Shown here piece by piece: positions 38,063 through 62,953 of a DNA stretch of 64,000 bases. Position numbers and translations under genes: made by a program. Position 1 is the first letter of the stretch; every line of letters starts with the position of its first letter. Origin of the DNA: an uncultured bacterium (GTDB lineage Bacteria > Patescibacteriota > Minisyncoccia > Phycocordibacterales > UBA2100). The stretch is taken from contig CAIOKC010000032.1 of the NCBI GenBank assembly GCA_903858755.1, positions 29,930 through 93,929 on the forward strand, read 5' to 3'. The notes beneath the pieces were generated by a model. The model had not been told where the DNA came from and did not search any database. It saw only the letters and a program-made list of their open reading frames with translations.

Positions 38063-39076
38063 ATGTCAAAACCTCAAGAAAACACCCCAGAAAAAGCCGG
38101 TCGCACGCTTGATCAAGCGTTGCGCCCCGCCGATTGGAGGGAATACGTCGGGCAGCCGACGATAAAAGAGAATCTGCGCATCCTCCTCACGGCGGCGAAG
38201 GGTCGCAACCACCAGCCCGAGCACGTGCTTTTGTACGGACCGCCAGGGCTCGGTAAGACCACGCTTGCACATCTGATGGCGAAAGAGATCGGCGCCTCCC
38301 TTCGCTCCACCTCCGGTCCCGCAATCGAGCGCGTGGGCGATCTCGCAAGCATCCTCACCAATCTTTCTCCGGGCGACGTGCTTTTCATAGACGAAATCCA
38401 CCGTCTCAATCGCACGATCGAAGAAGTCCTCTACCCCGCGATGGAAGCGGGCGTGCTCGACATCGTCATCGGCAAGGGACCTTCGGCACGCACGGTGCAG
38501 CTCGAGCTTCCGCCCTTCACGCTTATCGCCGCGACGACGCGCATCTCGATGCTCTCCGCGCCGCTTCGCTCGCGATTCTCCGGCGGCACGTTCCGATTGC
38601 AGTACTACGCCGACGACGAAATCGCGGAAATCCTTCGACGCTCCGCGAAGATACTGAATATCCCCATCGACGCCGATTCGCTTATGGAGATTTCCCGCCG
38701 CTCGCGCGCGACGCCGCGCACCGCCAACTACTTGCTGAAACGCGCGCGCGATTTCGCGGAAGTAAACGGCGAGTCGCTTGATATACGGACGGTGAAAAAA
38801 GCGCTCGCGCTCCTGGAGATCGACGAGCGCGGACTCAATCAGACCGACCGCGATATTCTCACCATCGTCGTCGAGAAATTCGGCGGCGGACCGGTGGGTC
38901 TGAAGACGATCGCGGCTGCGCTCTCCGAAGAAGAGGCGACGATAGAAGAGGTGAACGAGCCGTACCTGATGCAGACAGGGCTTCTCGAGCGCACCCCGCG
39001 CGGTCGCACCGTGACCGCCAAGGGACACGAGCATATCGGCGCGGATGCGCCAAGATCGCAATCCGCATTGCTCTAA
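38063..39076 (+). CDS. ruvB: Holliday junction branch-migration helicase RuvB
   Basis: LLYGPPGLGKTTLAHLMA (Walker A), DVLFIDEIHRL (Walker B), sensor and winged-helix regions. Confidence 0.95.
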   Translation: MSKPQENTPEKAGRTLDQALRPADWREYVGQPTIKENLRILLTAAKGRNHQPEHVLLYGPPGLGKTTLAHLMAKEIGASLRSTSGPAIERVGDLASILTNLSPGDVLFIDEIHRLNRTIEEVLYPAMEAGVLDIVIGKGPSARTVQLELPPFTLIAATTRISMLSAPLRSRFSGGTFRLQYYADDEIAEILRRSAKILNIPIDADSLMEISRRSRATPRTANYLLKRARDFAEVNGESLDIRTVKKALALLEIDERGLNQTDRDILTIVVEKFGGGPVGLKTIAAALSEEEATIEEVNEPYLMQTGLLERTPRGRTVTAKGHEHIGADAPRSQSALL

Positions 39077-39154
39077 ACGCTCGCGCTGCTGGGGATAAGA
39101 AAGAAAATGTCTGTCTGCGGCGTGTACACTAGCGGTACGCGCACGGTAAACAAA

Positions 39155-39186
39155 GACCTCCCTTCCGGGAGGTCTTTGCGTTTCGG
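39155..39186 (+). terminator. Intrinsic terminator after ruvB
   Basis: aaagacctcccttccgggaggtctttgcgttt: 9-bp stem, then a T-rich tail. Confidence 0.5.
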
Positions 39187-39651
39187 TCATTCTGAATCTC
39201 GGTGAGCGTACTCGCTTGGATCGATATGATCTCCTCGCGCGAGCAAGAGCTTGGTGTGCATCCGAACTCGCTTCACCCATCCCACCACTCCTGACCGACT
39301 GTTCCCGCAGTGTCCTCAAGCTTTCGCAAGACAAGACTCACGGAACTGATATTCGGCGCATCGGGTTTCCCCGCCCTGCCTCCTATCGCCGACGCACGGT
39401 AAAGCGCATCAGACTTCAGATGATACACGGCGCATTTTCTGCGCATTTTTTCAAAAAGTCGTGTTTCCGGGGATATGTTGTGCACCGAGCTGTGTATAAG
39501 CATGTGCATAACGGCGTGGATATGAAAGAGGTGCGTGGCGGGTTTGTCTGGCACGCGAACGACCGGCACAGCGACAGCGCACGTTTTTACGCCCTACTTG
39601 GTGCAGTGCTACGCGGCGCAAAATAGCCTTTTCACGCTTAACCATACGTAA

Positions 39652-39918
39652 TTAGCACCAGAGGTGCTTGTAAATATCTTTCTCATCCAGACCACATTTA
39701 GCAACCAGAAACTCTTCCACGAAGTCTTTCAAGAGGTGTTTATTCACAGGGCTTGTCCTTGGTATTCCAAAAGCATGCCCAGTTGCCAGATGCCTAATCT
39801 TTGTGTGTTTCGAACTCCAGAACAGAGTTTCAAATCCTCCCAACTTGTCTATTGCCCCAAAAACATCATCGGGAGTACAGGCAGCGAGTTTGGGTTTACC
39901 CCCTCTTGGCTTGACCAC
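39652..39918 (-). CDS. HicA-family type II toxin (putative)
   Basis: 88 aa; ...SSKHTKIRHLATGHAFGIPRTSPVNKHLLKDFVEEFLVAKCGL fits the HicA pattern (gSHh...hp.tg...iP.H...i..g.l..ilkq.gl). In an AT-rich islet. Confidence 0.5.
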   Translation of the reverse strand: MVKPRGGKPKLAACTPDDVFGAIDKLGGFETLFWSSKHTKIRHLATGHAFGIPRTSPVNKHLLKDFVEEFLVAKCGLDEKDIYKHLWC

Positions 39919-39927
39919 ACAAAGGAG

Positions 39928-40284
39928 TTAGCAAACAGAGTCCTGGAGAGTTAAGGTTGTCTCACTACTACCGCGCTGCTCAATTTCTTTTTCCATAGAA
40001 ACGAACTGATTGAACATCTCCTCGATGCGGACATGTTGTTCCGTAAGTGGCATATAAAATCCGACGTCTTTTCTTTCATTCTCCGGTATTTCAAAGTAAG
40101 TCAAAATTGCATCATTTACCATCAGTAGCAATTCTGCTGAACTGCTTGCTTGCGTATAGCAATCAGAAATTTTCCCATCTGGCGTTGAGATTTTTGCCCA
40201 AAGACCATCGTCGTTATTCTCAATACGAACTTCCACTCGGATTGGAAGGCGACTTCTATATTCTTGAGTTTTTTTGTCGTCCAT
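39928..40284 (-). CDS. HicB-like antitoxin (UPF0150 fold, putative)
   Basis: 118 aa; N-terminal ...VEVRIENNDDGLWAKISTPDGKISDCYTQASSSAELLLMVNDAILTYFEI fits the HicB/UPF0150 RNase-H-like pattern. Located 10 nt upstream of hicA-like. Confidence 0.5.
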   Translation of the reverse strand: MDDKKTQEYRSRLPIRVEVRIENNDDGLWAKISTPDGKISDCYTQASSSAELLLMVNDAILTYFEIPENERKDVGFYMPLTEQHVRIEEMFNQFVSMEKEIEQRGSSETTLTLQDSVC

Positions 40285-40444
40285 ACTTCCTTAGACGCCT
40301 GCTCCCCATCATTTTTACATGAGTTTGATGACGTCTGGATGAACTATATCCCCAATTGGGGAAATCTCATAATTATGGGATGAAGGGATAGGCACTGATA
40401 TGAAAGAGCGCCGCCCCCAGGGGGGGCGGCGCGGGTATTCCGAC

Positions 40445-40723
40445 TCAGGCGGCGATCCGAGGACGAGACGCTTTCTGAATACGCTGCTTGAGTTCGCGGA
40501 GATCAGCTTCAGCGACTGTCTTTTGCACCTTGAACCACAGCGAGCAATCCGTATGGCGGATGACTTCTAATCCGGCGTTCGGATTGATCGCTCGCATGAT
40601 GCCCAGGACTTCATCGTTGTCCGGGAAACGCCTCGGGAGTTTATCCCAAATCAGCATGTACTTCTTCGTGGCTTTATCCGAGCTCTCCTCGATCAGATGC
40701 AGCTCAAGTTTTGATTCGGACAT
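40445..40723 (-). CDS. Hypothetical protein
   Basis: 92-aa ORF; no recognisable family. Confidence 0.3.
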   Translation of the reverse strand: MSESKLELHLIEESSDKATKKYMLIWDKLPRRFPDNDEVLGIMRAINPNAGLEVIRHTDCSLWFKVQKTVAEADLRELKQRIQKASRPRIAA

Positions 40724-40840
40724 CCCTGCCTCACTTTCATTTCGAATTCAAACTTCGCCTAGGATACCCGCGTATTCTGATTTGTAAATACGCGGGGCGG
40801 ATTTTTGCATTTTTGTTCCTCCCGGCGCATACTCGATTGC

Positions 40841-41371
40841 ATGGCAGGACACAGCAAGTGGGCACAGATAAAGAGGCAGAAAGGAGCGAATGACGCCGCA
40901 AAAAGCAAAACATGGGGCAAGCTCGGACGCCGCATCAGCGTCGAGAGCAAAAAGGCAAAAGGCGACACGAGCGCCGCACCCCTGCGCGCGGTCATCGAGA
41001 AAGCGAAGAAGGAGAACATGCCGAAAGACGCGATCGAACGCGCCGTCGCCAAGGGAAGCTCGACAGACGCAAGCACGCTCGACTCGATCACTTACGAGAC
41101 GTATGGTCCGGGCGGCGTCGGCATCATCATCGAGACGCTGACCGACAGCCGCAATCGCACCGCGCAAGAAATCAAGCACCTTTTGAGCGAGCTGGGTCTT
41201 GCGCTCGCCGCTCCGGGGAGCGCGGCGTGGGCTTTTGAAAAGACTCACGAAGGGTACGCTCCGAAGACCACCGTCGCGATTTCAGACGACGACGCAGAAA
41301 CACTGGCTCAGATTGTGGAGAAAATCGAGGCGTACGACGACGTGGAAGAGGTCTATACGAACGCTGAATAA
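40841..41371 (+). CDS. YebC/PmpR-family transcriptional regulator (short form)
   Basis: MAGHSKWAQIKRQKGANDAAKSKTWGKLGRRISVESKKAKGD... is a canonical YebC N-terminus. Confidence 0.8.
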   Translation: MAGHSKWAQIKRQKGANDAAKSKTWGKLGRRISVESKKAKGDTSAAPLRAVIEKAKKENMPKDAIERAVAKGSSTDASTLDSITYETYGPGGVGIIIETLTDSRNRTAQEIKHLLSELGLALAAPGSAAWAFEKTHEGYAPKTTVAISDDDAETLAQIVEKIEAYDDVEEVYTNAE

Positions 41372-41911: not shown

Positions 41912-42409
41912 ATGAGAGTCTTCGGCATAGACCCGGGATACGGCAGATGCGGCGTTGCGGTGGTCGAGAAACAAGAAGGCAAAGAGGTGCTCCTCTATTC
42001 CGACTGTATTGAGACGCCTATGGGTGCGGAATTTGCCGCGCGACTCCTTCGCGTCGCCGACGAGTGCGCCCGGCTCATACGGGAGTACGCGCCCGACAGC
42101 ATCGCCATGGAAAAAGTATTTTTCTCCAACAATCAAAAAACGGCGATGCAGGTTGCCGAAGTGCGCGGCGCGCTTATCAATTGCGCATCGGGCTTTGGAC
42201 TCACCGTGTCCGAATACTCTCCCGGTGAAGTCAAAGTCGCGATTGCAAACTCAGGGAAAGCAGACAAGAAGCAGATCGCTGCGATGCTCCGCATGCTGAT
42301 CGCAATCAAAAAGCCAATCAAGCGCGACGACGAATACGATGCGATAGCGATCGCTGTCGCCCATCTCGCCCTGAAGCATGGCGACGAAGCGAGAAAACGT
42401 CTACAATAG
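41912..42409 (+). CDS. ruvC: Crossover junction endodeoxyribonuclease RuvC
   Basis: MRVFGIDPGYGRCGVAVVE...; RNase H-like fold with catalytic D/E positions. Confidence 0.9.
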   Translation: MRVFGIDPGYGRCGVAVVEKQEGKEVLLYSDCIETPMGAEFAARLLRVADECARLIREYAPDSIAMEKVFFSNNQKTAMQVAEVRGALINCASGFGLTVSEYSPGEVKVAIANSGKADKKQIAAMLRMLIAIKKPIKRDDEYDAIAIAVAHLALKHGDEARKRLQ

Positions 42410-44847: not shown

Positions 44848-45945
44848 CTACCGATTGAGCGGCATGACGAGGTAGATAAAATCGGGGTCGGAGACGCCCT
44901 TGACGATAAGCGGTCTTCCCGCTCCGGAAAAAGAGAGAACGATCGAATCCGATGCGACCGTAGGAAGACAATCCGCGAGGTACCCGATATGGAAATTGAT
45001 GTCGATGTCCTCGCCGGAGAGCGCGGCATCGATCGAGTCGGACATTTCTCCCACATCCGCGCTCCGCGCCGTTGCGGAACATACTTTCTTTTTCGGATAC
45101 ACATGAAGCCCGACATGCTGGTCGCCGCCTGAAAAGACGCGCGCTTTCTTCAACATCTCGGCGAAGTCGCTCTTGAGAAGGGTCGCTTCGGTCGTCGCTG
45201 TCTTCGGTATGATCTCCTTGTAATTCGGAAACACAGCGTCCACGACGCGCGAGACGTAGCGAGCGCCGCCGCCCTCAACGATCATCTGCGAGTCGTCCGC
45301 CGAAAGCCGCACCTCCTCGTCGCTCACGCGCTCGAGAATATGCACAAGCTCAAGGGCATGCTTCAGGGGTATAAGGAGCTCGACCTCGCCGCCGCCCGAG
45401 ACACCGACAATCCGCTTCTCAGCGAGACGAAAGGAATCAGTCGCTACACAAGTAATATGCTTACCGTCGATACTCACATACACGCTCCCCAATTCTGGTC
45501 TGATCATCGATGGAGACGCCGCGTAGACGACGCTTTGGATGCCGCGCATCAGATCTTCTCGACCGATCACGACACCTTTTTTCCCGTCCACGACCCCAAA
45601 CGATGGAAATTCGTCGTGCGGAACCGCTTTTATGAGCGTTTTCGTGCCTCGCGACTCGACAAGCAAATTACCCTCATCCGTCTGGAGCGTCACTGTATTT
45701 CCCGACAACGAACGAAGCGTCTGCGAGAAGATTCCAGCTGGTACAGCAACGATCCCCTTCTCCCCCACCTCACACTGGCTCACCACCTCCACACCGGCTT
45801 CGAGGTTGGTGGCTCGGACAGAGAGCTCTTTCCCCACATCAAGAAGCACGCACGAAAGTATAGGGAGTGTCTCTTTTTTCCCCGTGATCCTTTCTGCAAG
45901 AAGAATTGCGTTAAGGATTTTTTCTTTCGGGATTGTTATGCGCAT
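44848..45945 (-). CDS. dnaN: DNA polymerase III beta subunit (sliding clamp)
   Basis: 365 aa, MRITIPKEKILNAILLAERITGKKETLPILSCVLLDV...; three-domain clamp pattern. Confidence 0.9.
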   Translation of the reverse strand: MRITIPKEKILNAILLAERITGKKETLPILSCVLLDVGKELSVRATNLEAGVEVVSQCEVGEKGIVAVPAGIFSQTLRSLSGNTVTLQTDEGNLLVESRGTKTLIKAVPHDEFPSFGVVDGKKGVVIGREDLMRGIQSVVYAASPSMIRPELGSVYVSIDGKHITCVATDSFRLAEKRIVGVSGGGEVELLIPLKHALELVHILERVSDEEVRLSADDSQMIVEGGGARYVSRVVDAVFPNYKEIIPKTATTEATLLKSDFAEMLKKARVFSGGDQHVGLHVYPKKKVCSATARSADVGEMSDSIDAALSGEDIDINFHIGYLADCLPTVASDSIVLSFSGAGRPLIVKGVSDPDFIYLVMPLNR

Positions 45946-46181
45946 ATAGTTGAATTTATTTCTTTATAAAGACTATTACTACTATTAGTGCTGTGGAAAG
46001 TGGGGAGAACTGTATTTTGTGCTGATTGTAAGGCGTATTTTCTCTGTCTCATCGAGTGGAAAAGTCTCGTATAAACGAAAGCCGTCGTGGGGACATCCTC
46101 CTTCTTTGAGATGTTCGACTGCGTGTAGACGTCTTTTCCTCGCATATTCCCCGCCTTGTCCACAGTGTTGTGCATAGGTGT
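45946..46181. promoter_or_regulatory. Candidate oriC: AT-rich dnaA-dnaN intergenic region with DnaA-box-like 9-mers
   Basis: Markedly AT-rich (aatttatttctttataaagactattactactattagtg) in a ~60% GC genome. Contains ttgtccaca (46156-46164; consensus TTATCCACA with 1 mismatch), tgtggaaag (45993-46000) and cgtggatga. Confidence 0.5.
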
Positions 46182-47528
46182 TTATGCGTGGATGAGCGTA
46201 CGGATATGCTCCAGCTCTTGTTCGAGCGACGTGTTTGATTTCACCTCCTCCTTTATTTTTTCGCACGAATGGATGACGGTCGTGTGGTCGCGTCCGCCGA
46301 GTTTTTCCCCGATCGAGGGGTATGAGACGCCGAACTCCTCGCGGAGCATATACATGATGATTTGTCGCGGCTTCACCACCTCTTTCTTGCGCGTTTTTTC
46401 GTAGATGCTCTTTTCTGCCACTTCGTAGTACTGGGCGATGCGTCGTACTACTTCGTCGACCGATACGCCGCGGTTCGGCTTCACATTGTGCTTTATAAGC
46501 GCCCGAACGTCGGCGTGTGATATCGCCTTCCCTTTCAGCTGGGACTTGCAGACGATCATGTTGAGAACCCCCTCGAGTTCGCGGATGTTGCCACGGACGT
46601 TCTCGGCGATGTACTGGACGATGTCGTCGGGGATCGAAAATCCGTGGCTCTCGAGCTTTGCCCTGATGATCGCGATGCGTGACTCCACGTCGGGCTCTGG
46701 AATCTCCGCGATCATGCCCGACTGGAAGCGGCCTTTGAGGCGCTCTTCGAATCCCGGCAGCATCGCGGGGTGCTTGTCGGACGAAAAGACGATCTGCTTG
46801 TTGTTGTCGTGCATCGCGTTGAAGAGGTGGAAGAGTTCCTCCTGCGTTTTCTCGGTGTTTGCGATGAACTGGACGTCGTCCATGATAAGGACGTCGTAGG
46901 ATCGGTACTGGTCTTTGAAGTTGTTCGCCTTCCCTGCGCGTACGGAATTTATGTAGTCGATAGCGAAGCGCTCGCTTGTCACGTACAGCACTTTTTTGTT
47001 GGCGTGCGCCTTTTTGAAGTAGTTGCCCACGGCCTGTATGAGATGCGTCTTGCCGTGCCCGGTCGAACCGTAGATGAAGAGCGGATTGTATGAGAGACCG
47101 GGGCGCTCGATAATCGCTTTCGCCGCCGCGTGGGCGAGCTGATTGAACGGCCCCACGACGAATGTCTCGAACGTGTAGCGCGGGTTGAGGTTGTCGCGCT
47201 TGTCTATGTAGAGCGATTGGATGTCGATTGCCGTATTCTCGGGCGCCGCGGGGCGCGGCTGGCGCTTTTCAGCAGGCAGCGCGCTCCTGTGGACCGCGTA
47301 CTCGACAGTGCGTATGGAACTATCAAGTCCCCGGAGCGCTTTGAGGATGAGCTTGTGGTGTTTCTCCAAAAGCCACTCCTTCACAATCTTCGAAGGGACG
47401 GCGACCTGGACCGTCCCTCCATCGCGGCTTGCGATGTCTGTGTTGCGGAACCACGTCCGGAACGACGCTTCGGAGGTTCCAAGCTCGATCTGCACGAGCG
47501 CGTTCTGCCATAATTCACGATTGCTCAT
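46182..47528 (-). CDS. dnaA: Chromosomal replication initiator protein DnaA
   Basis: AAA+ Walker A (GSTGHGKTHLIQAVGN), Walker B (DVLIMDDVQF), sensor motifs and C-terminal DnaA-box-binding HTH. Start taken at MSNRELWQ, giving 448 aa. Confidence 0.9.
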   Translation of the reverse strand: MSNRELWQNALVQIELGTSEASFRTWFRNTDIASRDGGTVQVAVPSKIVKEWLLEKHHKLILKALRGLDSSIRTVEYAVHRSALPAEKRQPRPAAPENTAIDIQSLYIDKRDNLNPRYTFETFVVGPFNQLAHAAAKAIIERPGLSYNPLFIYGSTGHGKTHLIQAVGNYFKKAHANKKVLYVTSERFAIDYINSVRAGKANNFKDQYRSYDVLIMDDVQFIANTEKTQEELFHLFNAMHDNNKQIVFSSDKHPAMLPGFEERLKGRFQSGMIAEIPEPDVESRIAIIRAKLESHGFSIPDDIVQYIAENVRGNIRELEGVLNMIVCKSQLKGKAISHADVRALIKHNVKPNRGVSVDEVVRRIAQYYEVAEKSIYEKTRKKEVVKPRQIIMYMLREEFGVSYPSIGEKLGGRDHTTVIHSCEKIKEEVKSNTSLEQELEHIRTLIHA

Positions 47529-47719
47529 AGGGGTTGTGTGCCATGCGCGCAGCCCGGACATTATACGTGCCTCTTTGATCGACGGAAGAGTCCACGCACG
47601 GACGGGACGAGTGCATAACCTGTGGACGAGATGGGGACAGTGGGACATACCGGGCGGTGGCATCGGCGTCCCCGCTCTGCGGGGGTTGAAGTTATGGAAA
47701 GTTTTAGTATAGTGGCGCC

Positions 47720-47854
47720 ATGAGACGAACGTGGCAGCCAAAAAAGCGGAAACGCGCCCGAGCTCACGGATTTTTGGGTCGCTCCAAGACAAAGAGCGGG
47801 ACCAACCTTCTTCAGCGACGCCGAAGAAAGGGTCGTGCCCGACTTTCGGTCTAA
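47720..47854 (+). CDS. rpmH: 50S ribosomal protein L34
   Basis: [44 protein letters not shown] is a canonical L34. It is a short in-frame ORF not listed in the six-frame track; read directly from the sequence. Confidence 0.9.
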
Positions 47855-47858
47855 TCGA

Positions 47859-48188
47859 ATGCCCAGAGCCAAAAGACTTTCCCGCCGAGATTTTGAGATC
47901 ATCGGTCGTTCTCCCCGCAAGCGGTTCAACGGAGCGTATTTTTCCTTGACGATCGCCCCTTCCCCCAAGGGTGGGGGTGTCCAGGCAGCGTGCGTGGTCT
48001 CGAAGAAGGTCTCCCCGCGCGCAGTCGTCCGCAATCGAATAAAGCGGCGTTGCCGCGATATTGTCCGCTCACTGCTTACACGGCGCGCACTTCTCGGAGC
48101 GGTGCTTCTCACAGCGAAACGCGAGGCAGCGAGCGCATCGTATGAAGACATGCGATCCGACATCGAGCGTCTGCTTGCGCGACTCTAG
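47859..48188 (+). CDS. rnpA: Ribonuclease P protein component
   Basis: MPRAKRLSRRDFEIIGRSPRKRFNGAYFSL... RnpA pattern, directly after rpmH. Confidence 0.8.
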   Translation: MPRAKRLSRRDFEIIGRSPRKRFNGAYFSLTIAPSPKGGGVQAACVVSKKVSPRAVVRNRIKRRCRDIVRSLLTRRALLGAVLLTAKREAASASYEDMRSDIERLLARL

Positions 48189-48221
48189 CGATTATCGCGG
48201 CGTCGAGATACAATCCCGAGC

Positions 48222-48950
48222 ATGATATCCTCCGCTTTCCATGCGGCTATCTATGTGCCGCTCTACAACGGTCTTGTCTTTCTGGTGGGTCATATACCGA
48301 CTCACGATATGGGTCTCGCGGTCATCGCGCTCACCATCCTCGTCCGCATCGTCGTCTTCCCGCTCTCCCATCGCGCAGTTCGCTCGCAGATAGCGATGAA
48401 GAAGCTCGCGCCGGAAGTCGAGGAGCTGAAGAAGAAGTTCAAGAGCAACTCGCCGGAGCAGAGTGCGGCGATTTGGAAGCTCTATCGAGAACGCGGCATT
48501 CACCCGCTCGCGAGCCTCGGTCTTCTCCTCATACAGCTCCCCGTCCTTTTCGGGTTGTACTGGGTCTTTTTGCTCGGCGGGTTTCCCCAGATCGACTCAT
48601 CTCTCCTCTACTCGTTCGTATCCGCCCCGCCTTTTACCGACATGCACTTCCTGGGATTCGTCGATATGGGAGCGAAGCACAATATCGTCCTCGCGCTGTT
48701 GGTCGCCGCGAGCCAATTCGTCTACACGCGTCTTTCCATGGGTCCGCGGGGGCAGAGTGCAAACATCGAGGCGTCGCTTTCCGCCGATATGGCGAAGAGC
48801 TTCGACCTCCAAGCACGCTACCTCTTTCCGCTCATGTTTGCGGGTATTTCGTATTTCGTCGCGGCGGCCGCTCCCCTCTACTGGCTTACAGGCAATCTCT
48901 TCATGATCGGTCAGGAATATTTGGCGGGCAGGAGATTCCGTGATAGATAG
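48222..48950 (+). CDS. yidC: Membrane protein insertase YidC (short, Oxa1-like form)
   Basis: 242 aa, 5 TM, conserved ...AVIALTILVRIVVFPLSHRAVRSQIAMKKLAPEVEELKKKF... Confidence 0.85.
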   Translation: MISSAFHAAIYVPLYNGLVFLVGHIPTHDMGLAVIALTILVRIVVFPLSHRAVRSQIAMKKLAPEVEELKKKFKSNSPEQSAAIWKLYRERGIHPLASLGLLLIQLPVLFGLYWVFLLGGFPQIDSSLLYSFVSAPPFTDMHFLGFVDMGAKHNIVLALLVAASQFVYTRLSMGPRGQSANIEASLSADMAKSFDLQARYLFPLMFAGISYFVAAAAPLYWLTGNLFMIGQEYLAGRRFRDR

Positions 48951-48955
48951 AGTGG

Positions 48956-49426
48956 ATGGCAGCGGTTGAAACCATCCTCACGGAGCTTCTCGACGCGCTC
49001 GGGGTCTCGTACTCCGGTATTGAAAAGAGCGAGATTGCGGGTCAGGAGATATACGCGATCCGTACCGACGATGCGCGGACGCTCATCGGAGCGCACGGTG
49101 ATACGGTCCATGCGCTCGACATGCTCGCGAAGAAAATATACGAAAAACGGAATCCCGCCGAAGGAGGAGAGGGTGAACGAACGCCGATGTTTCTCGTCGA
49201 CGTCAACGACTACCGAAGCAAGCAGATAAAAGATTTGCAGACCAAGGCGCTCATGATGGCGGAGCGTTCGCGCTCGTTCCAGTACGATGTCGAGCTCTCC
49301 CCCATGAGCTCCTACGAGCGCCTCATTATTCACACCACATTGCAGGGTGCGCCGCACATCAAGACGGAATCTCAGGGAGAAGGTCGAAACAGGCGGGTCG
49401 TCATCAAATACTCTGCCGACGCTTAG
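48956..49426 (+). CDS. jag: Jag/KhpB RNA-binding protein (KH + R3H)
   Basis: 156 aa, KH-like N-terminal region and C-terminal R3H (ERLIIHTTLQGAPHIKTESQGEGRNRRVVI). Confidence 0.8.
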   Translation: MAAVETILTELLDALGVSYSGIEKSEIAGQEIYAIRTDDARTLIGAHGDTVHALDMLAKKIYEKRNPAEGGEGERTPMFLVDVNDYRSKQIKDLQTKALMMAERSRSFQYDVELSPMSSYERLIIHTTLQGAPHIKTESQGEGRNRRVVIKYSADA

Positions 49427-49965
49427 GCTCCGCCGTTGAACAGGGATTCGGTCGGGCTTTCGGGCAGTCCCTGATCGTTGAAACCCGGCACGGGCGAGCC
49501 TGAGGGACCGGAGTTATTTATTTGTTGCGATTGCTGCTGCGCGGGCAGCGGCTTGATTCTCTTGAGCGCGTCGAGCGTAAGGATGCCCGGATTGATCTGG
49601 TAGAGGATGAGGTAAATGGCAAGAAGGAGAAGTATGCCGAGCGTCACGTCGCCGATGATCTCTTTCGCTTCGCCCTTGTGGCTCCACATGTCCGCCTGCC
49701 CCATGTAGAGGTATCCTGCATAGGCGAGCCGTATGACCGCGCCGATCGCGCCGATCGCGATCGCGAATTTGAACAGACCATTCACGAAATTCGACAGGTC
49801 GGTCGAAGCGTACAGGTTGCCCAGTTTCGAGGACGCAGGCGTGTCTGCGAGCGGTACGAACGCCTGGGACATGACCAATCGTCCTCGCGCGCGCATCCAC
49901 TTTGAAAGTGTCGGTATGATTTTATTCATGTATGCGTAGTACCCAGAGAGACCTGTCGCTTGCAT
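49423..49965 (-). CDS. Two-TM membrane protein, candidate VirB2/TrbC-like T4SS pilin
   Basis: 180 aa: leader, two long hydrophobic helices (LFKFAIAIGAIGAVIRLAYAGYLYM; IIGDVTLGILLLLAIYLILYQI), Gln/Pro-rich tail. First gene of the T4SS-like block. Confidence 0.35.
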   Translation of the reverse strand: MQATGLSGYYAYMNKIIPTLSKWMRARGRLVMSQAFVPLADTPASSKLGNLYASTDLSNFVNGLFKFAIAIGAIGAVIRLAYAGYLYMGQADMWSHKGEAKEIIGDVTLGILLLLAIYLILYQINPGILTLDALKRIKPLPAQQQSQQINNSGPSGSPVPGFNDQGLPESPTESLFNGGA

Positions 49966-51214
49966 TGACGAACGCGATTGCTGAGCCGTTTGGCGCGATG
50001 GCGGGGTCCTTCACGTCGAGGGACGTGTTTGAACCGGGCGTATAGAGCGCGCGCGCGGTGTTTGCCGACACGTCGATTTCCCACCACGCGTCTGCGGTGT
50101 GCAGCTCCCCGCGGTACCAACGATCGAGGTAGCCGCCTGCGGGAAGCGTTTGCGGTACCGCGCAGTACAGTATGTTTGCGCGCGCGGGTGCCCACACGCA
50201 TTTCTCGGCCACCGTGCGGACAGGAAGCTGCACGGACGATGTCTCGCCCGTGCGAGCGAACAAGCGGACGCCGTCTTCTCCGGATGTGCTATATGCGAGC
50301 GCGGTCGATGACGCGCGCGGTAGTACCACGAGCCCGGGAAGTCCGGGCGCGATTTTCGTGATCCCGCCGCTCCTCACTTCGTACGCGTGTCCCAGGGTGC
50401 GGTCCGCAGGCTCTTCAAGAAAGATAATGCGACCATCGGAGAGCCAGTCGACGCGCCACGATCCGATGCCGGAGAGAAATACGCGCTTCTGCCCGCCTCC
50501 GCGCGCGCCCGCGCGTATGCCGACAAATTTTCCCGCGTCTTGCGCCAGATACAGCACCTCGTCTCCCGCAGGGGAAAGTGCAATACGGAGGATGTTTTTC
50601 CCGAGAGCGACGCCCGACAGAGAGCGCAGCGCGTCGGAGGTTGTCGTCGAAAGAGTCCCGGAGAAGGTTGTGATAGCGTCGTTCCCATCGAGTCCGCGCA
50701 TCAGTATCGTTCCGTTTTTCCCGAACAACGCTTCGTAGGTCTTGGGCATCAGCGTGTTTGAAAGGCGCTCGACCGCCTCCGACGCCGGATCCGCCGAGAA
50801 GACGTATCCGGTCGACCGTTCCGCGAAGTAGAGGCGCTCGCCCCGCTCTTCGGCGACAAACCCGAAACCGGCGACCGGCGTCTGGGTAACCCGCCAGAGA
50901 CCTTGCGTCGAGCGGGTCTCCCCTTCCGCGTCTCCTTGTCCGAAGACGGTAGAGATGGCGTTTTGGTACGCATTGCCGAGTGCCCCGACAAAGGTCGGCG
51001 CGTCCGCGCCGAATCCGCGCGCACTGTCCCGGTCGGCAGTCGCCTGTGTTTCTCCGCGGATGAAGAAGTACCATCCCGAAAGCGCGCCGAGCACGATGAC
51101 GATGATCGCAGCGAGTGTGAATCCGATGAGAGAGTGTACGCGCATACTCATTCTGCTGAAGGGTTGCCGAATAATCCTCCGGAGCCGCCGCCCGAAGACA
51201 GGGTAATCCCCCAT
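49922..51214 (-). CDS. Membrane-anchored periplasmic protein (beta-propeller/TolB-like, putative)
   Basis: 430 aa, N-terminal TM, repeated hydrophobic/Gly-rich beta-strand segments. Confidence 0.4.
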   Translation of the reverse strand: MGDYPVFGRRLRRIIRQPFSRMSMRVHSLIGFTLAAIIVIVLGALSGWYFFIRGETQATADRDSARGFGADAPTFVGALGNAYQNAISTVFGQGDAEGETRSTQGLWRVTQTPVAGFGFVAEERGERLYFAERSTGYVFSADPASEAVERLSNTLMPKTYEALFGKNGTILMRGLDGNDAITTFSGTLSTTTSDALRSLSGVALGKNILRIALSPAGDEVLYLAQDAGKFVGIRAGARGGGQKRVFLSGIGSWRVDWLSDGRIIFLEEPADRTLGHAYEVRSGGITKIAPGLPGLVVLPRASSTALAYSTSGEDGVRLFARTGETSSVQLPVRTVAEKCVWAPARANILYCAVPQTLPAGGYLDRWYRGELHTADAWWEIDVSANTARALYTPGSNTSLDVKDPAIAPNGSAIAFVNASDRSLWVLRIHE

Positions 51215-51741
51215 GATTCGGAAGCTTCGAAGAATACGTTCGCGAGATGAGAGATGTCGAGAGTAAGAAGCCCGATGCCGTTTGAGTTTTGCGCCCCGAT
51301 CGTGATCGCGTACGGACGCTCGTCGTCAGCGGGGATCGCTTTGCCGTTGACGATCCAAGACCACTGCAGCAGCCGGTCGGAGAGGCGCGCGACGGGGGCG
51401 AAATACGGTATCGCCGCGAACGTCATTTCAGAATCAGGTATCAGGGATTGCGCGCCGAGCGCTCGGTGGTACGTCACGCCGAAAAGCGGGTGATCCTGGT
51501 AGAGGTCGAGCGTCGGCTCTGCGGAAGGGATTTGGACGGACGCGCTCCCCGCGAGCTGCCGGTCGAGCGTCGCCGCCTCGACCGATACGGTATCGCTCCC
51601 GAAAAGGACCGGCGCCGGAATGCTTACGCTTGATTTCCCGCGCCCCGACACGCTTCCGAGTATTTGGTCGTTGCGCCTCCATGTGAAGACGATGTCGGAG
51701 ATCGCCGCCTCCTTCCCTCCTTCGTAGACGAAGTGCGGCAC
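51148..51741 (-). CDS. Hypothetical protein; in frame with, and possibly continuous with, 51769-52200 across a single TAA
   Basis: GTG-initiated ORF in the same frame as the upstream ORF; a VPxFYEG motif is repeated on both sides of the stop. Confidence 0.35.
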   Translation of the reverse strand: MPHFVYEGGKEAAISDIVFTWRRNDQILGSVSGRGKSSVSIPAPVLFGSDTVSVEAATLDRQLAGSASVQIPSAEPTLDLYQDHPLFGVTYHRALGAQSLIPDSEMTFAAIPYFAPVARLSDRLLQWSWIVNGKAIPADDERPYAITIGAQNSNGIGLLTLDISHLANVFFEASESWGITLSSGGGSGGLFGNPSAE

Positions 51742-51768
51742 TGCTTCGAGGCGGAGAGTCGAGCCCGC

Positions 51769-52200
51769 TTAAGGAAGCGCGCGACCTTCGTAAAACGGCG
51801 GGACGTACGAGTCGGCATCAAACAAAAGGTCGATCTCTGTCGGGGCTATGGTGAGTGCCGCAAACAATGCTGCGTCGTCGGGAGCGACGACGTCGACCGA
51901 GACGTCGATCGCAGAGCCGAGCGCGCCCGCGACAAGCTCGGCGGATGTCGCGCCTACTCCCTGCGCGAAGACCTTGCCGTTCACTCGCCACGTGAGCGTG
52001 CTGTCCGAGAGGTCGTAGGCACTACTTCGTGCTTCGAGGCGCACAGTGTCGTGCGGAGCCGGGTACGCGGGCGAAAGAGTGATGGAGACGGCATCGCCTA
52101 TGCCCGGAAGCGCGAATTGCGCGTACGCATGCGGAGCGAAGAGCAGGATCGCGCTTGCGAGTGCGCCGAGAGCGTACGCATGTGCCCGCGTCGCGCTCAT
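51769..52200 (-). CDS. Secreted hypothetical protein (signal peptide), upstream half of a possible split gene
   Basis: MSATRAHAYALGALASAILLFAPHAYAQ signal; ends ...PPFYEGRALP-TAA. Confidence 0.4.
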   Translation of the reverse strand: MSATRAHAYALGALASAILLFAPHAYAQFALPGIGDAVSITLSPAYPAPHDTVRLEARSSAYDLSDSTLTWRVNGKVFAQGVGATSAELVAGALGSAIDVSVDVVAPDDAALFAALTIAPTEIDLLFDADSYVPPFYEGRALP

Positions 52201-54140
52201 ACGGTCGGCATGCGCGGGATGCCGGATGCTTGCGGCGCCGTGTCTGCTCCCGGAGCGGCGTGCGCTCCGCCTGAGAGCGGCGCCGATTGTGCGGGCGCGG
52301 CGCTCGCAAGCGAAGATGGAGCGATGTCTTGCGCCTGCGCGAGCTCCTGCTTCGCTTTCTTGATAGCGAGAATCTGCGACGGGTCAGACGTGATGATCTG
52401 ATCCTCGGTGTACGAAGCAATGACCTTGATCGCGACGTGCTTCAATCCCGCGAAGAAAATACCCTCCCCCACGTCTGACTCGAGCAAGAGGTACTTTTCT
52501 TCGTCGGAGAGCTTGAATGTCTGCTGCACGAGATCGACGGAAGTCGGCGACTGGCGCAAAAGGAGCTGGATCGAGGAGTTGGTGATCATGGGGATGCCAT
52601 ACGGCGAATTGAGGAAGTCGGAGACGTCTTGCGTGATGGTCGAGATGCCGAGGTAGTATTTGCGACCGCGTTTTGCGATTGAGAACAAAAAGGAGGCAGT
52701 GTCTTGGCTTCGCATCATCCACCACGCCTCGTCGATCACGAGAAGACGCTTGCGGAGCTCTTTCCGCACGGTGTTCCAGATGTGGTGGGTGATGATGTAC
52801 ATCGCGACCGGCTTTAGGTCGTCCTCCATATCGCGCACGGAGAAGACGATAAGCTTCTTGTTCATGTCGACGTTGGTCGGTCGGTTCATGAATCCAGACC
52901 ACGTGCCCTTGGTGTATTTCGAGAGACGCTGCACGAGAGACTCGCTCCCCTCCATGCCGGAGAGCACGAGCTCGAAGTCGGAAAGGAGCGGCGGCTCCAC
53001 CTGCGCAAAGTTGGCATCCGCGGTGATGTCTTTGAGAGCGTACGTCTCGGTGATCGCCTTGTCGATGATCGCGTCCTCTTCGGGCGTGAGACCGCCGAGC
53101 ATGATGCGGAAGAGCCCCACGAGGGTAATGATGTTGTTGCGCAGTATGTCGGACGGATTCTCGTCTTCGCGCGGGATGGGGAGGTCGAACGGATTGATGT
53201 GGTTCTCCGACGAGAGCGATATGTTGAAGTAGCGCCCGCCCACCGTCTCGGCGAGGTACTCGTATTCGCGCTCGGGGTCGATCACGATGACTTCGGTGTC
53301 AAACATGAGCGAACGGAGGATTTCGAGTTTGGTCGTGTAGGATTTCCCCGCGCCAGATTTGGCGAAGGTCACCGAATTGTAGTTCTCGAGCGAAAAGCGG
53401 TCGAAGAGGATGAGGGAAGAGTTGTGGCGGTTGATGCCGTAGAGAATGCCGCGGTCGCTCGTAAGGTCGAACGAAATGAACGGGAATATGGAAGAGAGCG
53501 GCGCAGAGTTGAGTTTCGTGTGGACATTGAGCTCGTCGGTCGCAAGCGGCAGGACCGAGCGGAATCCCTGTTCCTGCTGGAAAAGCGCGGGACGAATGTA
53601 GACAAGGCGTGATTCGAGGATCGAGCGCACCTCGCTCTCGACCTTGTCGATCTCCTCGCGGGTGCTGCCGTAGATGGTCATGTAGAGACCCACTTCGAAT
53701 ATGCGCTCCTGCGCTTGCTGGAGAGAGTCGCGGAGCTGCTCGAGATCGGAGTAGGCGGTATCGAGCATCGGGTCGCGCACCATCCCCTTCGACTCGCGCA
53801 TGGATATCTGGCTCTGGACCTCCGCGACCTTCTTCTGAAATTTGCGCAGCATCTCGTTGGTGTCCATGGGGTGGACGAAGATCGAGATATCGATGACCTT
53901 ATCCATGTTGATGATGGGGGCGAACCACCCCGTGGTGAGGAAGCGCGGGTAGGAGATGACGAAGAACGTGCGGGCGATCTTTTCGCCCAGATCGAGTTCG
54001 CGCGAGCTGACGCGGAGCGCGTGCGGTGCGATAACGTCTTGCAAGTCAAGGACGCCGGACTTGTAGATTTCTTCCGGCAATACCGGGAGGACGTTCGGGC
54101 TCTCCGCGTCTTTTTTCTTGAACAGGTCGATAAGTGTCAT
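52197..54140 (-). CDS. VirB4/TrbE/CagE-family type IV secretion ATPase
   Basis: 647 aa; Walker A (VTFAKSGAGKSYTT), Walker B (LLVIDEAWWMM), conserved VirB4 C-terminal motifs. Confidence 0.8.
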   Translation of the reverse strand: MTLIDLFKKKDAESPNVLPVLPEEIYKSGVLDLQDVIAPHALRVSSRELDLGEKIARTFFVISYPRFLTTGWFAPIINMDKVIDISIFVHPMDTNEMLRKFQKKVAEVQSQISMRESKGMVRDPMLDTAYSDLEQLRDSLQQAQERIFEVGLYMTIYGSTREEIDKVESEVRSILESRLVYIRPALFQQEQGFRSVLPLATDELNVHTKLNSAPLSSIFPFISFDLTSDRGILYGINRHNSSLILFDRFSLENYNSVTFAKSGAGKSYTTKLEILRSLMFDTEVIVIDPEREYEYLAETVGGRYFNISLSSENHINPFDLPIPREDENPSDILRNNIITLVGLFRIMLGGLTPEEDAIIDKAITETYALKDITADANFAQVEPPLLSDFELVLSGMEGSESLVQRLSKYTKGTWSGFMNRPTNVDMNKKLIVFSVRDMEDDLKPVAMYIITHHIWNTVRKELRKRLLVIDEAWWMMRSQDTASFLFSIAKRGRKYYLGISTITQDVSDFLNSPYGIPMITNSSIQLLLRQSPTSVDLVQQTFKLSDEEKYLLLESDVGEGIFFAGLKHVAIKVIASYTEDQIITSDPSQILAIKKAKQELAQAQDIAPSSLASAAPAQSAPLSGGAHAAPGADTAPQASGIPRMPTV

Positions 54141-54145
54141 AGCGC

Positions 54146-54814
54146 CTATTGGGTAAGCCCCGCGATCGGCATGGGCTTCCCCTCTTCGCCCGGGTTGAAC
54201 ATTTTGTAGAGAAGCTCGATCGCCTCTTCGGTCCCCAGCTGCACGGTGCGCACGCCGGTCCGGACCAGACCCTGCTGCACGATCGAGATGCGCTGTTCAA
54301 GCTGCGTCGCCTGCTCCTCGAACGAGCGATTCTTCTCTTCGGTGTTTTGTTTCTTTTTTCCGAATGGAATAAGAGAGCCGATGCCGCTTTTTGAAACCGC
54401 AATGACCGGAGAATACGGCACGACGACAAAGAAGTTTTTCGTCATGATGTTTGCCGCTTCCGTAAAGCTCTTGATGAATTCGATGTACTCGCGGATCTGG
54501 ATGCGCATGAGGTCGTCGAGCTGATTCTTGTATGCTGCTTCGAGGGTCGCGACGTACGGTCGGATATCGAGCATGCGCGATTGCACGAATATCTGCGCGG
54601 AAAAATCGAGTGAGTTGAGGAAATTCTGGAATTGCACGATGAATGCGGTCTGTTCGTCTTCTGACTTGAGGGCGAAATTGATGGAGGAGGCGAGGAGAAT
54701 CGCGCGCAGGCTTCCGTCTTTGAGGACGACGATTCCGTCGCGCACCTCGGATACCGGCAGGAATTCCTGCGTGCTCTTCGCCGATGTGCGCGGATTTGCG
54801 GTCTGGGTCGGCAT
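54146..54814 (-). CDS. Hypothetical soluble protein of the T4SS-like operon
   Basis: 222 aa, no TM, no recognisable family; between the PrgI-like and VirB4 genes. Confidence 0.35.
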   Translation of the reverse strand: MPTQTANPRTSAKSTQEFLPVSEVRDGIVVLKDGSLRAILLASSINFALKSEDEQTAFIVQFQNFLNSLDFSAQIFVQSRMLDIRPYVATLEAAYKNQLDDLMRIQIREYIEFIKSFTEAANIMTKNFFVVVPYSPVIAVSKSGIGSLIPFGKKKQNTEEKNRSFEEQATQLEQRISIVQQGLVRTGVRTVQLGTEEAIELLYKMFNPGEEGKPMPIAGLTQ

Positions 54815-54816
54815 AA

Positions 54817-55320
54817 TTATTGGACGAGCGCCTGCCGGGCGGTCCGCACGGGAGCGACGAGATCCTCAGCCGTTCGTACGGCGTGGCGGTCCTCGTCGTT
54901 CGCGACCCCGGCAGAGATCCGCTCCTTGATGTCGAGACTCCACGCAAGCTCATGGAGCTTGCTTTCGGACAACTTCGGGACGTATACCTGGGCGGCGGAA
55001 TCCGGCTTGGCTGCGGCTTTCTTGGCAGACTGCTTTCGGGCGTTGTTCCAGAGGTAGAGCTTGCCGCGTATATAGAAGAAAAACGCGTTCTCAAGCCCGA
55101 GGATGAAGGGGCGTCCGTTGAATCGAAAGAACGCAAGCGCCGCCGCAAGACCTCCGACGACGAGGATGAGGGGTCCCGAGAGGTAGACGGGGAATATGCG
55201 CCATAGAATGTACGCCGCGCCGGCTCCCCCGCCGAGGTAGATGAACTGTTTGAAGGTCAGCGGTCCGAATATTTTATCCTCGACCTCTATGAACTGTGGT
55301 ACTTGGAACTGCATACGCAA
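54817..55320 (-). CDS. PrgI-family (VirB3-like) membrane protein
   Basis: VPQFIEVEDKIFGPLTFKQFIYLGGGAGAAYILW, then a second TM: the PrgI family hallmark. Confidence 0.6.
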   Translation of the reverse strand: MRMQFQVPQFIEVEDKIFGPLTFKQFIYLGGGAGAAYILWRIFPVYLSGPLILVVGGLAAALAFFRFNGRPFILGLENAFFFYIRGKLYLWNNARKQSAKKAAAKPDSAAQVYVPKLSESKLHELAWSLDIKERISAGVANDEDRHAVRTAEDLVAPVRTARQALVQ

Positions 55321-56073
55321 TTAAAGTATAGCAACGTTTTCCTGCTCATCCGGCGTACGTGCGTGGAATATGTCGAACAATGTGTCGACCGAGGCGATTT
55401 CGGCGGGAGGAATGGGCAGCGCATCTTTCGAAAGGAGTTTCGACTCTTGCCGCGTGCCGCTGCAGTAGTCGTTGAAGCTGGAATACTTGTATGTCTGTAT
55501 GAAGGTTGCCGCGCGCTCTTTCTCCGCGATGCCGTGTTCCCGCCAGCCGGGCTGCAAGAGGTCTAACGGATTCAGGTGTATATATGAGAACAGCCAGCGC
55601 ATGTACTCATCCGAATCTGCGTGCTTTGATCGGAACGGTCGAGCGAACAGCGGTCCGCTCCGCTGGTGTTTTGTGTTGAAGTACATCGAGTACGCGGTCA
55701 TGAGCTTGAGCATGAACTTTGATATGCCTCCCTCGGTGCTCTCACGCAGGGCAAGGTGAATATGATTGGGCATCAGCGCATACCCCATGATTGCCGTGAG
55801 ACGCCCCTCTTCCGGTTTGGACTCGCCTTCTAGCCACTTTATCAAGGGTTCCCCTTGATATTTCTTCAGAGTGTTCGCGACATGGACGGGCTTCTTGCTG
55901 TTGCACAGGAGGAGCAGGAGCATGAATCGGTCATAGTCGCGATTTTCTAGGAATATCGTCCTTTTTTCGACTCCGCGCGTGTACACGTGGTAGTTCTCGC
56001 CCTCTACAAAGGGAACCTTCCTCTCCATGAGGTCATCATAGCGTATTATCAAGGGGACCCCTTGATAATCCAC
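55321..56073 (-). CDS. IS200/RAYT-like HUH Y1 single-strand DNA nuclease/transposase-family protein
   Basis: YHVYTRGVEKRTIFLENRDYDRFMLLL; HUH motif LMPNHIHLAL; YSMYFNTKH; GPLFARPFRSKHADSDEYMRWLFSYIHLNPL, which aligns to TnpA-REP/RAYT (QPRFWEHAIRN...DYIYINPVKHG). No flanking intergenic DNA. Confidence 0.65.
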   Translation of the reverse strand: MDYQGVPLIIRYDDLMERKVPFVEGENYHVYTRGVEKRTIFLENRDYDRFMLLLLLCNSKKPVHVANTLKKYQGEPLIKWLEGESKPEEGRLTAIMGYALMPNHIHLALRESTEGGISKFMLKLMTAYSMYFNTKHQRSGPLFARPFRSKHADSDEYMRWLFSYIHLNPLDLLQPGWREHGIAEKERAATFIQTYKYSSFNDYCSGTRQESKLLSKDALPIPPAEIASVDTLFDIFHARTPDEQENVAIL

Positions 56074-56082
56074 AAGACGAGT

Positions 56083-56631: not shown

Positions 56632-56634
56632 ACA

Positions 56635-58893: not shown

Positions 58894-58894
58894 A

Positions 58895-61860: not shown

Positions 61861-61929
61861 TCGTACAGTATACCGCGCGCGTATGCGCGCATACGTCGGA
61901 AAAACGCGGATATGTGTCTTGCAGTGAAT

Positions 61930-62904: not shown

Positions 62905-62953
62905 AAACTATACCATCCCGTTGCGCATCGTATTCACGGTGTACAATATATGG

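Follow-up and report, generated by a model that had tools for sequence, protein, structure and literature searches.

Results

Gene order and composition of the dnaA locus

The 64-kb stretch of DNA analysed here (the window), from an uncultured bacterium, carries dnaA and dnaN on the minus strand and, diverging from them on the plus strand, rpmH, rnpA, yidC and jag (47720-49426). The subject of this report is the spacer between dnaA and dnaN (45946-46181), a candidate chromosomal replication origin (oriC). The gene arrangement, claimed in an original prediction made from the sequence alone, is borne out by Pfam identities (Table 1), and the dnaN ATG follows immediately upon an AT-rich stretch at the spacer's end. 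The dnaA-dnaN spacer is 236 bp long with a GC content of 0.424, as AT-rich as predicted, while the GC content of the whole window is 0.574 and not the ~60% first given as its background. The dnaA-rpmH spacer (47529-47719), predicted to be GC-rich and 190 bp long, is 191 bp with a GC content of 0.597. An Rfam scan of 45700-47900 at E ≤ 1 gave no RNA family match, and no tRNA lies near the dnaA-dnaN site. Outside the motifs described below, the spacers of relatives are free to diverge, and small open reading frames (ORFs) in the spacer (e.g. 45936-46175) were for this reason taken to be spurious.

We consider it highly likely that the 236-bp spacer is the DnaA-assembly and unwinding half of a Candidatus Kaiserbacteria (Patescibacteria; candidate phyla radiation, CPR) chromosomal origin that follows the design of the Bacillus subtilis incC basal unwinding system (BUS). 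Its AT-rich gap between the two genes is very probably the predicted DNA-opening part of that origin.

Relatives were collected in a DnaA-protein scan with one genome per species, which gave 80 loci labelled Candidatus Kaiserbacteria, Paceibacteria or Parcubacteria, whose DnaA is 79-90% identical to that of the window. A metagenome scan added 80 further loci with DnaA identity down to 52%. Relatives were compared as 9-kb slices (the closed CP066682.1 included), with ±4-kb flanks for skew. Gene order is dnaA then dnaN in 80/80 genome loci, and an opposite-strand rpmH lies upstream of dnaA in all but two. Median values for the dnaA-dnaN spacers of relatives are 221 bp in length and 0.37 in GC content.

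A conserved module of DnaA boxes and trinucleotide repeats

DnaA boxes were searched for with up to two mismatches to the reference sequence TTATCCACA, against which mismatches are counted throughout. This mismatch-tolerant search, which the original prediction had proposed, found the densest cluster in the dnaA-dnaN spacer: five boxes, compared with 0.74 in composition-matched shuffles (P = 2e-4) and 0.48 expected from the window-wide box rate. No other 250-bp window of the 64 kb is as dense in boxes. Two of the three sites previously named in the spacer were recovered, ttgtccaca as TTGTCCACA (46156-46164, plus strand) and tgtggaaag as the minus-strand CTTTCCACA (45992-46000); the third, cgtggatga, falls at 46187-46195, within the 3′ end of dnaA, and is not a spacer box. 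The boxes TTCTCCCCA, TTTTCCACT (46055-46063) and CTATGCACA (46169-46177) and the repeat array TAATAGTAGTAATAG were absent from that prediction.

Box positions are conserved among 77 relatives, with a median of five boxes per spacer. The position of the proximal box has the family consensus nTATCCACA and holds a box at ≤2 mismatches in ~57/77 of them; the abutting box has the consensus TTMTCCMCA, with a gap to the proximal box of 0 nt in 59/77 and of -1 nt in 15/77. A box in the same orientation as this tandem pair occurs at about -80/-75 from the repeats in 61/77 relatives (46055-46063 in the window), and the commonest position of an inverted box is near -180, where the modal 5-nt bin holds 32 and where TTGTCCACA lies in the window.

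On the dnaA-sense strand the end of the spacer reads TTCTCCCCA, CTTTCCACA, GCAC, TAATAGTAGTAATAG, 27 AT-rich bases and the dnaN ATG. The array TAATAGTAGTAATAG occurs once in the window, and 0/100 shuffles contain (TAR)5, where R is a purine. Exactly five repeats were found in 68/81 loci. Over 388 repeats, the middle base is A in 388/388 and the third base a purine in 388/388, the first base being T in 366, C in 19 and A in 3. The AT-rich sequence that separates the repeats from the dnaN ATG is 1-36 nt long in relatives (median 22), and in the window the 50-bp GC content over this stretch is 0.24-0.28. The box-box-spacer-repeat-AT module, with its rigid spacing, recurs in ~150 Kaiserbacteria/Paceibacteria loci, including metagenome loci with DnaA identity as low as 52%. 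Nearest-neighbour calculation places the least stable 30-bp (45957-45987) and 50-bp (45944-45994) duplexes of the 64 kb in this segment (z 4.3-4.4).

Replication asymmetry

The cumulative G-C curve, which had been suggested as a check, falls from 0 to -1155 at 45795 and then rises, so that within the 64-kb window the minimum lies close to the dnaA-dnaN spacer, ~150 bp from the module. Gene strand was held constant because skew in this genome also follows gene strand: with minus-strand genes only, the plus-strand skew is -0.045 to the left of the spacer and +0.059 to the right, and the same-strand neighbours dnaN (-0.099) and dnaA (+0.079) are opposite in sign. Coding-strand skew at 4-fold sites across 81 genomes is +0.03 for dnaN, -0.05 for yidC and -0.10 for jag, all three predicted to be leading, and -0.146 for dnaA and -0.086 for the penicillin-binding protein (PBP) gene (-0.151 at third codon positions, GC3), both predicted to be lagging. 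The 4-fold skew of dnaN exceeds that of dnaA in 71/81 genomes (p = 9e-13), the genomes being phylogenetically related and their third codon positions near saturation. The switch is therefore placed between dnaA and dnaN, not upstream of dnaA.

DnaA boxes and putative promoter elements upstream of dnaA

The dnaA-rpmH spacer had been said to hold only weak boxes. These boxes are positional homologues of a conserved, 11-bp-phased array: nearly all of 79 relatives carry 2-3 boxes at about -114/-103/-92 from the dnaA ATG. In the window the array comprises CTGTCCCCA, TCGTCCACA and TTATGCACT, and two boxes are observed in this spacer, compared with 0.33 in shuffles (P = 0.04). The tgtggac of the original prediction lies in TCGTCCACA (47621-47629, minus strand); its gtccacg is part of no conserved box. 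Closer to the gene there is a conserved GCGTATAATG, whose distance upstream of the dnaA ATG varies between ~15 and ~90 nt among the 25 relatives listed; it is probably an extended -10 promoter element of dnaA. Because the conserved array stands upstream of this conserved GCGTATAATG element, it likely serves as part of a bipartite origin and/or in dnaA autoregulation.

That DNA unwinding takes place in the rpmH-dnaA spacer, with the dnaA-dnaN spacer as an auxiliary DnaA-binding lobe only, is very improbable. The presence of the phased array in nearly all relatives would suit such an arrangement, as would the gene orientation, since dnaA and dnaN would then both be co-directional with the leftward fork. 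Against this, the window's rpmH-dnaA spacer has a GC content of 60% and neither an AT-rich nor a repeat element, the least stable duplexes of the window lie elsewhere, the position of the boxes just upstream of a conserved TATAAT in the relatives shown fits promoter control, and dnaA is classed as lagging by 4-fold skew in 71/81 genomes.

Comparison with characterized and predicted origins

The elements of a BUS (Richardson 2019; Pelliciari 2021) are a DnaA box (≤2 mismatches, often tandem), a spacer of ≤16 bp, at least three 3′-NAN-5′ trios (consensus 3′-GAT-5′) and AT-rich DNA (PMC8287927). Box-anchored DnaA oligomerises onto one strand, two bases of each trio being captured between adjacent protomers (PMC10721633). 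The window has the abutting boxes TTCTCCCCA and CTTTCCACA with two mismatches each and, within the 0-16 bp range, a spacer of 3 nt in the canonical register or 4 nt in the sense register. On the canonical strand there are at least three consecutive 3′-NAN-5′ triplets; the strict consensus 3′-[G/A]A[T/A]-5′ does not extend there beyond the box-proximal triplet.

One of the closest likenesses is to the B. subtilis incC BUS, which also lies in the dnaA-dnaN spacer with rpmH divergent upstream. Both have two abutting co-oriented boxes pointing to the repeats, a 4-nt spacer (Table S1 of PMC8287927), 5-6 trinucleotide repeats and then AT-rich DNA beside dnaN (27-mer in B. subtilis), together with more boxes upstream of dnaA and a distal box in either orientation. 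The two differ in repeat number (five here, six in B. subtilis) and in sequence. The sense strand of B. subtilis reads box-GGCC-CTA CTA TTA, which puts its trios on the antisense strand, whereas that of the window reads box-GCAC-TAA TAG TAG, and the 3′-GA-5′ preference of the canonical strand is kept here in the first repeat only. The DnaA proteins differ as well, N187 of B. subtilis being I/V/M and N196 being G in these DnaAs.

The in vitro tested BUS of Staphylococcus aureus and Deinococcus radiodurans likewise have tandem boxes with a gap of 0 or -1 and a 4-nt spacer, which in S. aureus has the identical letters GCAC (Table S1 of PMC8287927); unlike the window, both carry CTA CTA on the sense strand, that is, the canonical polarity. 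The Helicobacter pylori oriC2 BUS belongs to a bipartite origin flanking dnaA and has a functional 3-nt spacer, matching the canonical register here, and CAG in its trio list; its box consensus, its eight trios and its genomic context are different. Chitinophaga pinensis has a predicted BUS whose sense strand reads box-box-GCC-CTAATAGTAGTG, with the same TAATAGTAG pattern after the boxes. It is the only cultured taxon with the Kaiserbacteria pattern in the accessible part of the 2021 survey table (Table S1, PMC8287927), a Bacteroidetes with four repeats in which the BUS is a prediction only and the strand issue goes without comment there. In the Thermotoga maritima oriC, the eTrio likewise consists of TAG repeats forming a DnaA-bound element of single-stranded DNA (ssDNA), three TAG repeats are essential for ssDNA binding, and flexible box orientation is tolerated. 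T. maritima differs in its 12-mer tmaDnaA boxes, in its model of recruitment of the single-stranded DNA unwinding element (ssDUE; looping) and in an origin outside the dnaA-dnaN spacer. An Escherichia coli-type oriC (13-mers, IHF, GATC/SeqA, gidA-mioC) was rejected, the spacer having 0 GATC compared with 5.7/kb in the window and the candidate adjoining dnaA.

Covariation of the DnaA contact helix with the repeats

The ssDNA-contact helix (initiator-specific motif, ISM) of the window DnaA is SERFAIDYINSVRAGK, the protein aligning to the B. subtilis DnaA chain 8btg with 369 bits. In B. subtilis, N187 reads the trio adenine, I190 flanks the third, outward-facing base, and R202, E228 and E183 bind the captured guanine and adenine (PMC10721633). 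Among 157 DnaAs, the equivalents of E183 and E228 are invariant and position 202 is always K; positions 190 and 193 are hydrophobic, the N187 equivalent is I/V/M, or T in a variant group, and the N196 equivalent is G.

Five loci (L054, L059, L069, L073 and L082) have CAA/CAG (CAR) instead of TAA/TAG repeats, and exactly these five carry the ISM SERF-TT-D/E-F-L, the others having SERF-[A/S][I/V/M]-D-Y-[I/M]. Of the other 132 unique loci, 131 have T-type arrays and L038 has a mixed one; C does not predominate at the first repeat position in any of them. Judged by DnaN and by the N- and C-terminal parts of DnaA, the CAR loci fall into three backgrounds: a clade of L059, L069 and L073; L054, beside L009; and L082, beside L003 and L022. 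What they share is a patch limited to DnaA alignment columns ~150-250 (~100 residues, domain III), with eight diagnostic residues, among them the equivalents of B. subtilis T186, N187 and I190, the last two being trio-contact residues defined by experiment. The arrays are close to those of their neighbours: that of L082 is the L003 array with every T replaced by C, and that of L054, CAA CAG AAC CAA CAA compared with TAA TAG AAG TAA TAG next to it, looks to have been derived in place from the neighbour's array. A test for recent recombination of the variant ISM found third-codon-position identity saturated (0.4-0.6 everywhere), and because synonymous sites are saturated, old recombination and parallel origin of the patch cannot be told apart. 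The co-occurrence of helix and repeat types argues that the ISM contacts the repeats, as the BUS model centrally claims.

The same observations bear on whether the spacer could instead be a DnaA-regulated dnaN promoter or leader with the dnaA terminator, the true origin lying elsewhere on the chromosome. We regard this as improbable. DnaA boxes commonly autoregulate the dnaA-dnaN operon, promoters and leaders typically have AT-rich DNA right before the start codon, a sigma-70-like site (ATGAGA-16-TACAAT) is present at 46052-46025 on the minus strand, and the skew evidence is limited to the 64-kb window. The repeats, however, stand 4 nt from the boxes in 73/77 relatives yet 1-36 nt from the dnaN ATG, the opposite of what a promoter or ribosome-binding site would lead one to expect, and a role of the repeats themselves as either signal was rejected because of this variable ATG distance and fixed box distance. 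The repeats moreover covary with the ssDNA-binding helix of DnaA and with nothing transcriptional, the skew switch and the dnaA/dnaN 4-fold asymmetry are located at the spacer, and no duplex in the 64 kb is less stable than this segment.

Strand polarity of the repeat array

In B. subtilis, Clostridioides difficile, S. aureus, H. pylori and T. maritima the canonical trio strand reads 5′-trios-spacer-TGTGGATAA-3′, a geometry taken from PMC10721633, PMC7561715, PMC10316083 and Table S1 of PMC8287927. The antisense (canonical) strand of the window is laid out as 5′-GACTATTACTACTATTAG-TGC-boxes and the sense strand as boxes-GCAC-TAATAGTAGTAATAG. The plus strand at 45971-45988 is 5′-GAC TAT TAC TAC TAT TAG-3′, which in the canonical register becomes 3′-GAT TAT CAT CAT TAT CAG-5′. 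This register has a 3-nt spacer and passes the NAN rule, with the strict consensus matched by the first triplet only. In the CAR loci, its middle base is G at most positions.

One possibility, to which we attach considerable doubt, is that the BUS is read here on the dnaA-sense strand, so that DnaA would hold 5′-TAA TAG TAG TAA TAG-3′, 3′-tailed and the reverse of B. subtilis. All five sense-strand repeats fit the strict 5′-[T/A]A[G/A]-3′. The A and the purine are invariant (388/388 each), and the variable base (T/C/A) is the one that faces away in B. subtilis. The residues that bind guanine and adenine (R202 as K, E228 and E183) are invariant in the 157 DnaAs, the A and R are kept in the CAR variants, CAG is among the H. 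pylori trios, and the I190 equivalent goes from I to L together with the change from T to C. T. maritima DnaA is able to form head-to-tail oligomers on inverted boxes. Several points speak for the canonical strand instead. B. subtilis incC is inactivated when boxes #6/#7 are reversed relative to the trios (PMC6669920), and strand polarity is fixed by the structure of the continuous oligomer. Read in the canonical register, the array satisfies the NAN rule, and its spacer then has the 3-nt length validated in H. pylori. In ~80% of loci a C borders the array, making the first trio the consensus 3′-GAT-5′, and in the canonical reading covariation links the middle base to the equivalent of N187, the residue that reads that base.

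We put forward only as a tentative and rather unlikely proposal that in Kaiserbacteria and most sampled Paceibacteria the trio array is inverted, with the sense strand captured, and that helix and repeats have switched together at least twice (A/S-I/V/M-D-Y-I with TAR, T-T-D/E-F-L with CAR).

One sampled locus alone has a Firmicute-like polarity, at 2838-3060 of L158 (metagenome contig OBEQ010755940.1, DnaA identity 57%). Its sense strand reads box-box-AGGT-CTTCTTATTCTTATT (CTT CTT ATT CTT ATT), and in its DnaA the contact residues are similar to those found at the other loci.

Table 1. Positions of genes, DnaA boxes and other sequence features in the window
Feature	Position	Strand	Basis or remark
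T2SSE/PilB-type secretion ATPase	36033-37727		~8 kb left of the origin
dnaN, DNA polymerase III beta clamp, 365 aa	44848-45945	-	Pfam DNA_pol3_beta N-terminal, central and C-terminal domains
AT-rich stretch of 27 bp, repeats to dnaN ATG	45946-45972	.	distal part of predicted unwinding element
Five trinucleotide repeats TAATAGTAGTAATAG (TAA TAG TAG TAA TAG), DnaA-trio-like	45973-45987	- (dnaA-sense)	sequence
Spacer of 4 nt (GCAC), proximal box to repeats	45988-45991	-	4 nt in 73/77 relatives
Proximal DnaA box CTTTCCACA	45992-46000	-	2 mismatches to TTATCCACA
Abutting co-oriented DnaA box TTCTCCCCA	46001-46009	-	2 mismatches
DnaA box TTTTCCACT, co-oriented with the tandem pair	46055-46063	-	box scan
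Distal DnaA box TTGTCCACA, inverted, near dnaA stop codon	46156-46164	+	sole exact copy in the window
DnaA box-like CTATGCACA	46169-46177	-	2 mismatches; weak positional conservation
dnaA, 448 aa, domains I, III and IV	46182-47528	-	Pfam DnaA_N, Bac_DnaA, Bac_DnaA_C
Putative dnaA -10 element TATAAT, in context CACGTATAATG (47556-47569)	47560-47565	-	conserved GCGTATAATG
Three co-oriented DnaA boxes, 11-bp phasing	47610-47640	-	box scan, relatives
Upstream box TTATGCACT, absent from the original prediction	47618-47610	-	box scan
Upstream box TCGTCCACA (contains tgtggac)	47629-47621	-	box scan
Upstream box CTGTCCCCA	47640-47632	-	3 mismatches
rpmH promoter-like site TTGAAG-16-TATAGT	47686-47713	+	consensus scan only
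rpmH	47720-47854	+	Pfam Ribosomal_L34
rnpA	to 48188	+	Pfam Ribonuclease_P
yidC	48222-48950	+	Pfam 60KD_IMP
jag (R3H)	48956-49426	+	Pfam R3H
VirB4/TraG-like ATPase	52197-54140	- (run)	type IV secretion system-like block
PrgI-like protein	54817-55320	- (run)	type IV secretion system-like block
IS200-like Y1 transposase domain	55321-56073	- (run)	within 49423-63790

Surroundings of the locus

The type IV secretion system (T4SS)-like block reported beside the origin is present, with VirB4-like and PrgI-like genes; it starts ~6 kb from the origin and is not directly adjacent to it. T4SS genes near dnaA in Patescibacteria were already reported in 2025 (PMC12102498). The VirB4/TraG-like and PrgI-like genes lie in an almost unbroken minus-strand gene run (49423-63790), which would be transcribed head-on to a rightward fork. 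With the T2SSE/PilB-type ATPase on the left, secretion or pilus ATPases are thus found on both sides of dnaA.

A second DnaA-box cluster, ranking second in density within the 64 kb, occurs at 39469-39523, in a ~570-bp ORF-poor stretch directly after ruvB (38063-39076). It comprises TGTGTATAA (39491-99), TGTGCATAA (39503-11) and CGTGGATAT (39515-23) in 12-bp phasing, as well as a CGGGGATAT-like site. No TAR repeats adjoin this cluster, which could be a DnaA-titrating or regulatory one. The stretch 39100-40750 parts ruvB from yebC (40805-41371) and ruvC (41912-42409); with its low GC content (0.49-0.52), ORFs lacking a Pfam match and one ORF with a GC3 of 0.39, it looks like an insertion. The idea that the ORFs at 39652-40284 form a toxin-antitoxin pair found no backing in Pfam. 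The segment 16420-16520, in a 48% GC kilobase by tRNA-Val and tRNA-Arg, ranks second in the window for low duplex stability; it has one TTTTCCACA, and no skew switch occurs at this site.

Discussion

The original prediction placed oriC, or at least its unwinding element, between dnaA and dnaN. This is strongly supported here, mostly by features which that prediction did not contain. Five independent lines support it: conservation of the module, instability of the duplex, skew within the window, 4-fold skew in 81 genomes, and covariation of helix and repeats. The locus combines the rpmH/dnaA/dnaN neighbourhood, a cluster of at least three boxes above chance, an easily melted flank, a skew switch and boxes on both sides of dnaA, as looked for in a DnaA-dependent, Firmicute-type origin.

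Several observations weigh against this interpretation. The skew minimum is known within 64 kb only, and a deeper chromosomal minimum elsewhere is possible; skew also depends on gene strand, and the near-wholly minus-strand block at 49.4-64 kb helps to shape the rightward rise. To the right of the site, 14/18 genes are head-on to the rightward fork, which is unusual beside an origin. All boxes of the window's dnaA-dnaN spacer carry 1-2 mismatches to TTATCCACA. The N187 that reads the trio adenine in B. subtilis is I/V/M in these DnaAs, and on the strand used by all tested BUS origins, repeats 2-6 are TAT, CAT, CAT, TAT and CAG, which depart from the strict 3′-[G/A]A[T/A]-5′.

We infer how the origin may work, namely DnaA binding, unwinding, helicase loading, which strand is held and whether the upstream lobe is needed. 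Domain IV of DnaA would bind the two abutting co-oriented boxes (46009-45992, minus strand), and the boxes at 46055-46063, 46156-46164 (inverted, distal) and 46169-46177 may assist in anchoring DnaA. From the tandem boxes, ATP-DnaA would oligomerise across the 4-nt spacer onto the five-repeat array (45987-45973), where the ssDNA-contact helix (ISM) of its AAA+ domain would capture one strand. The repeats and the adjoining 27-bp AT-rich stretch are predicted to melt, and the helicase would be loaded there. The boxes at 47610-47640, beside the putative dnaA promoter, probably have a role in dnaA autoregulation, and they may also be the second lobe of a bipartite origin, as in B. subtilis and H. 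pylori.

The kind of element, a dnaA-linked BUS-type origin, is ordinary; it is the lineage that lacks an earlier description. Our literature searches found no study dissecting a CPR/Patescibacteria origin, and the accessible part of the 2021 survey of 2070 species (PMC8287927) has no Saccharibacteria or Parcubacteria entry. To a specialist, only the strand polarity and the initiator-repeat covariation are notable.

Conclusions

An origin fixed to ~60 bp provides an anchor for metagenome-coverage estimates of replication rate in these episymbionts and for rotating and checking closed genomes, and it helps to interpret the published observation of T4SS genes near dnaA. The covariation of ISM and repeats supports, on evolutionary grounds, the view that the bases of DnaA-trios are recognised directly, and it points to residues 189, 190 and 193 of the window DnaA as swap candidates. 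The rigidity of BUS geometry could be tested simply through the strand question. If helix and repeats have indeed switched together, an initiator of replication would have changed its ssDNA specificity in nature.

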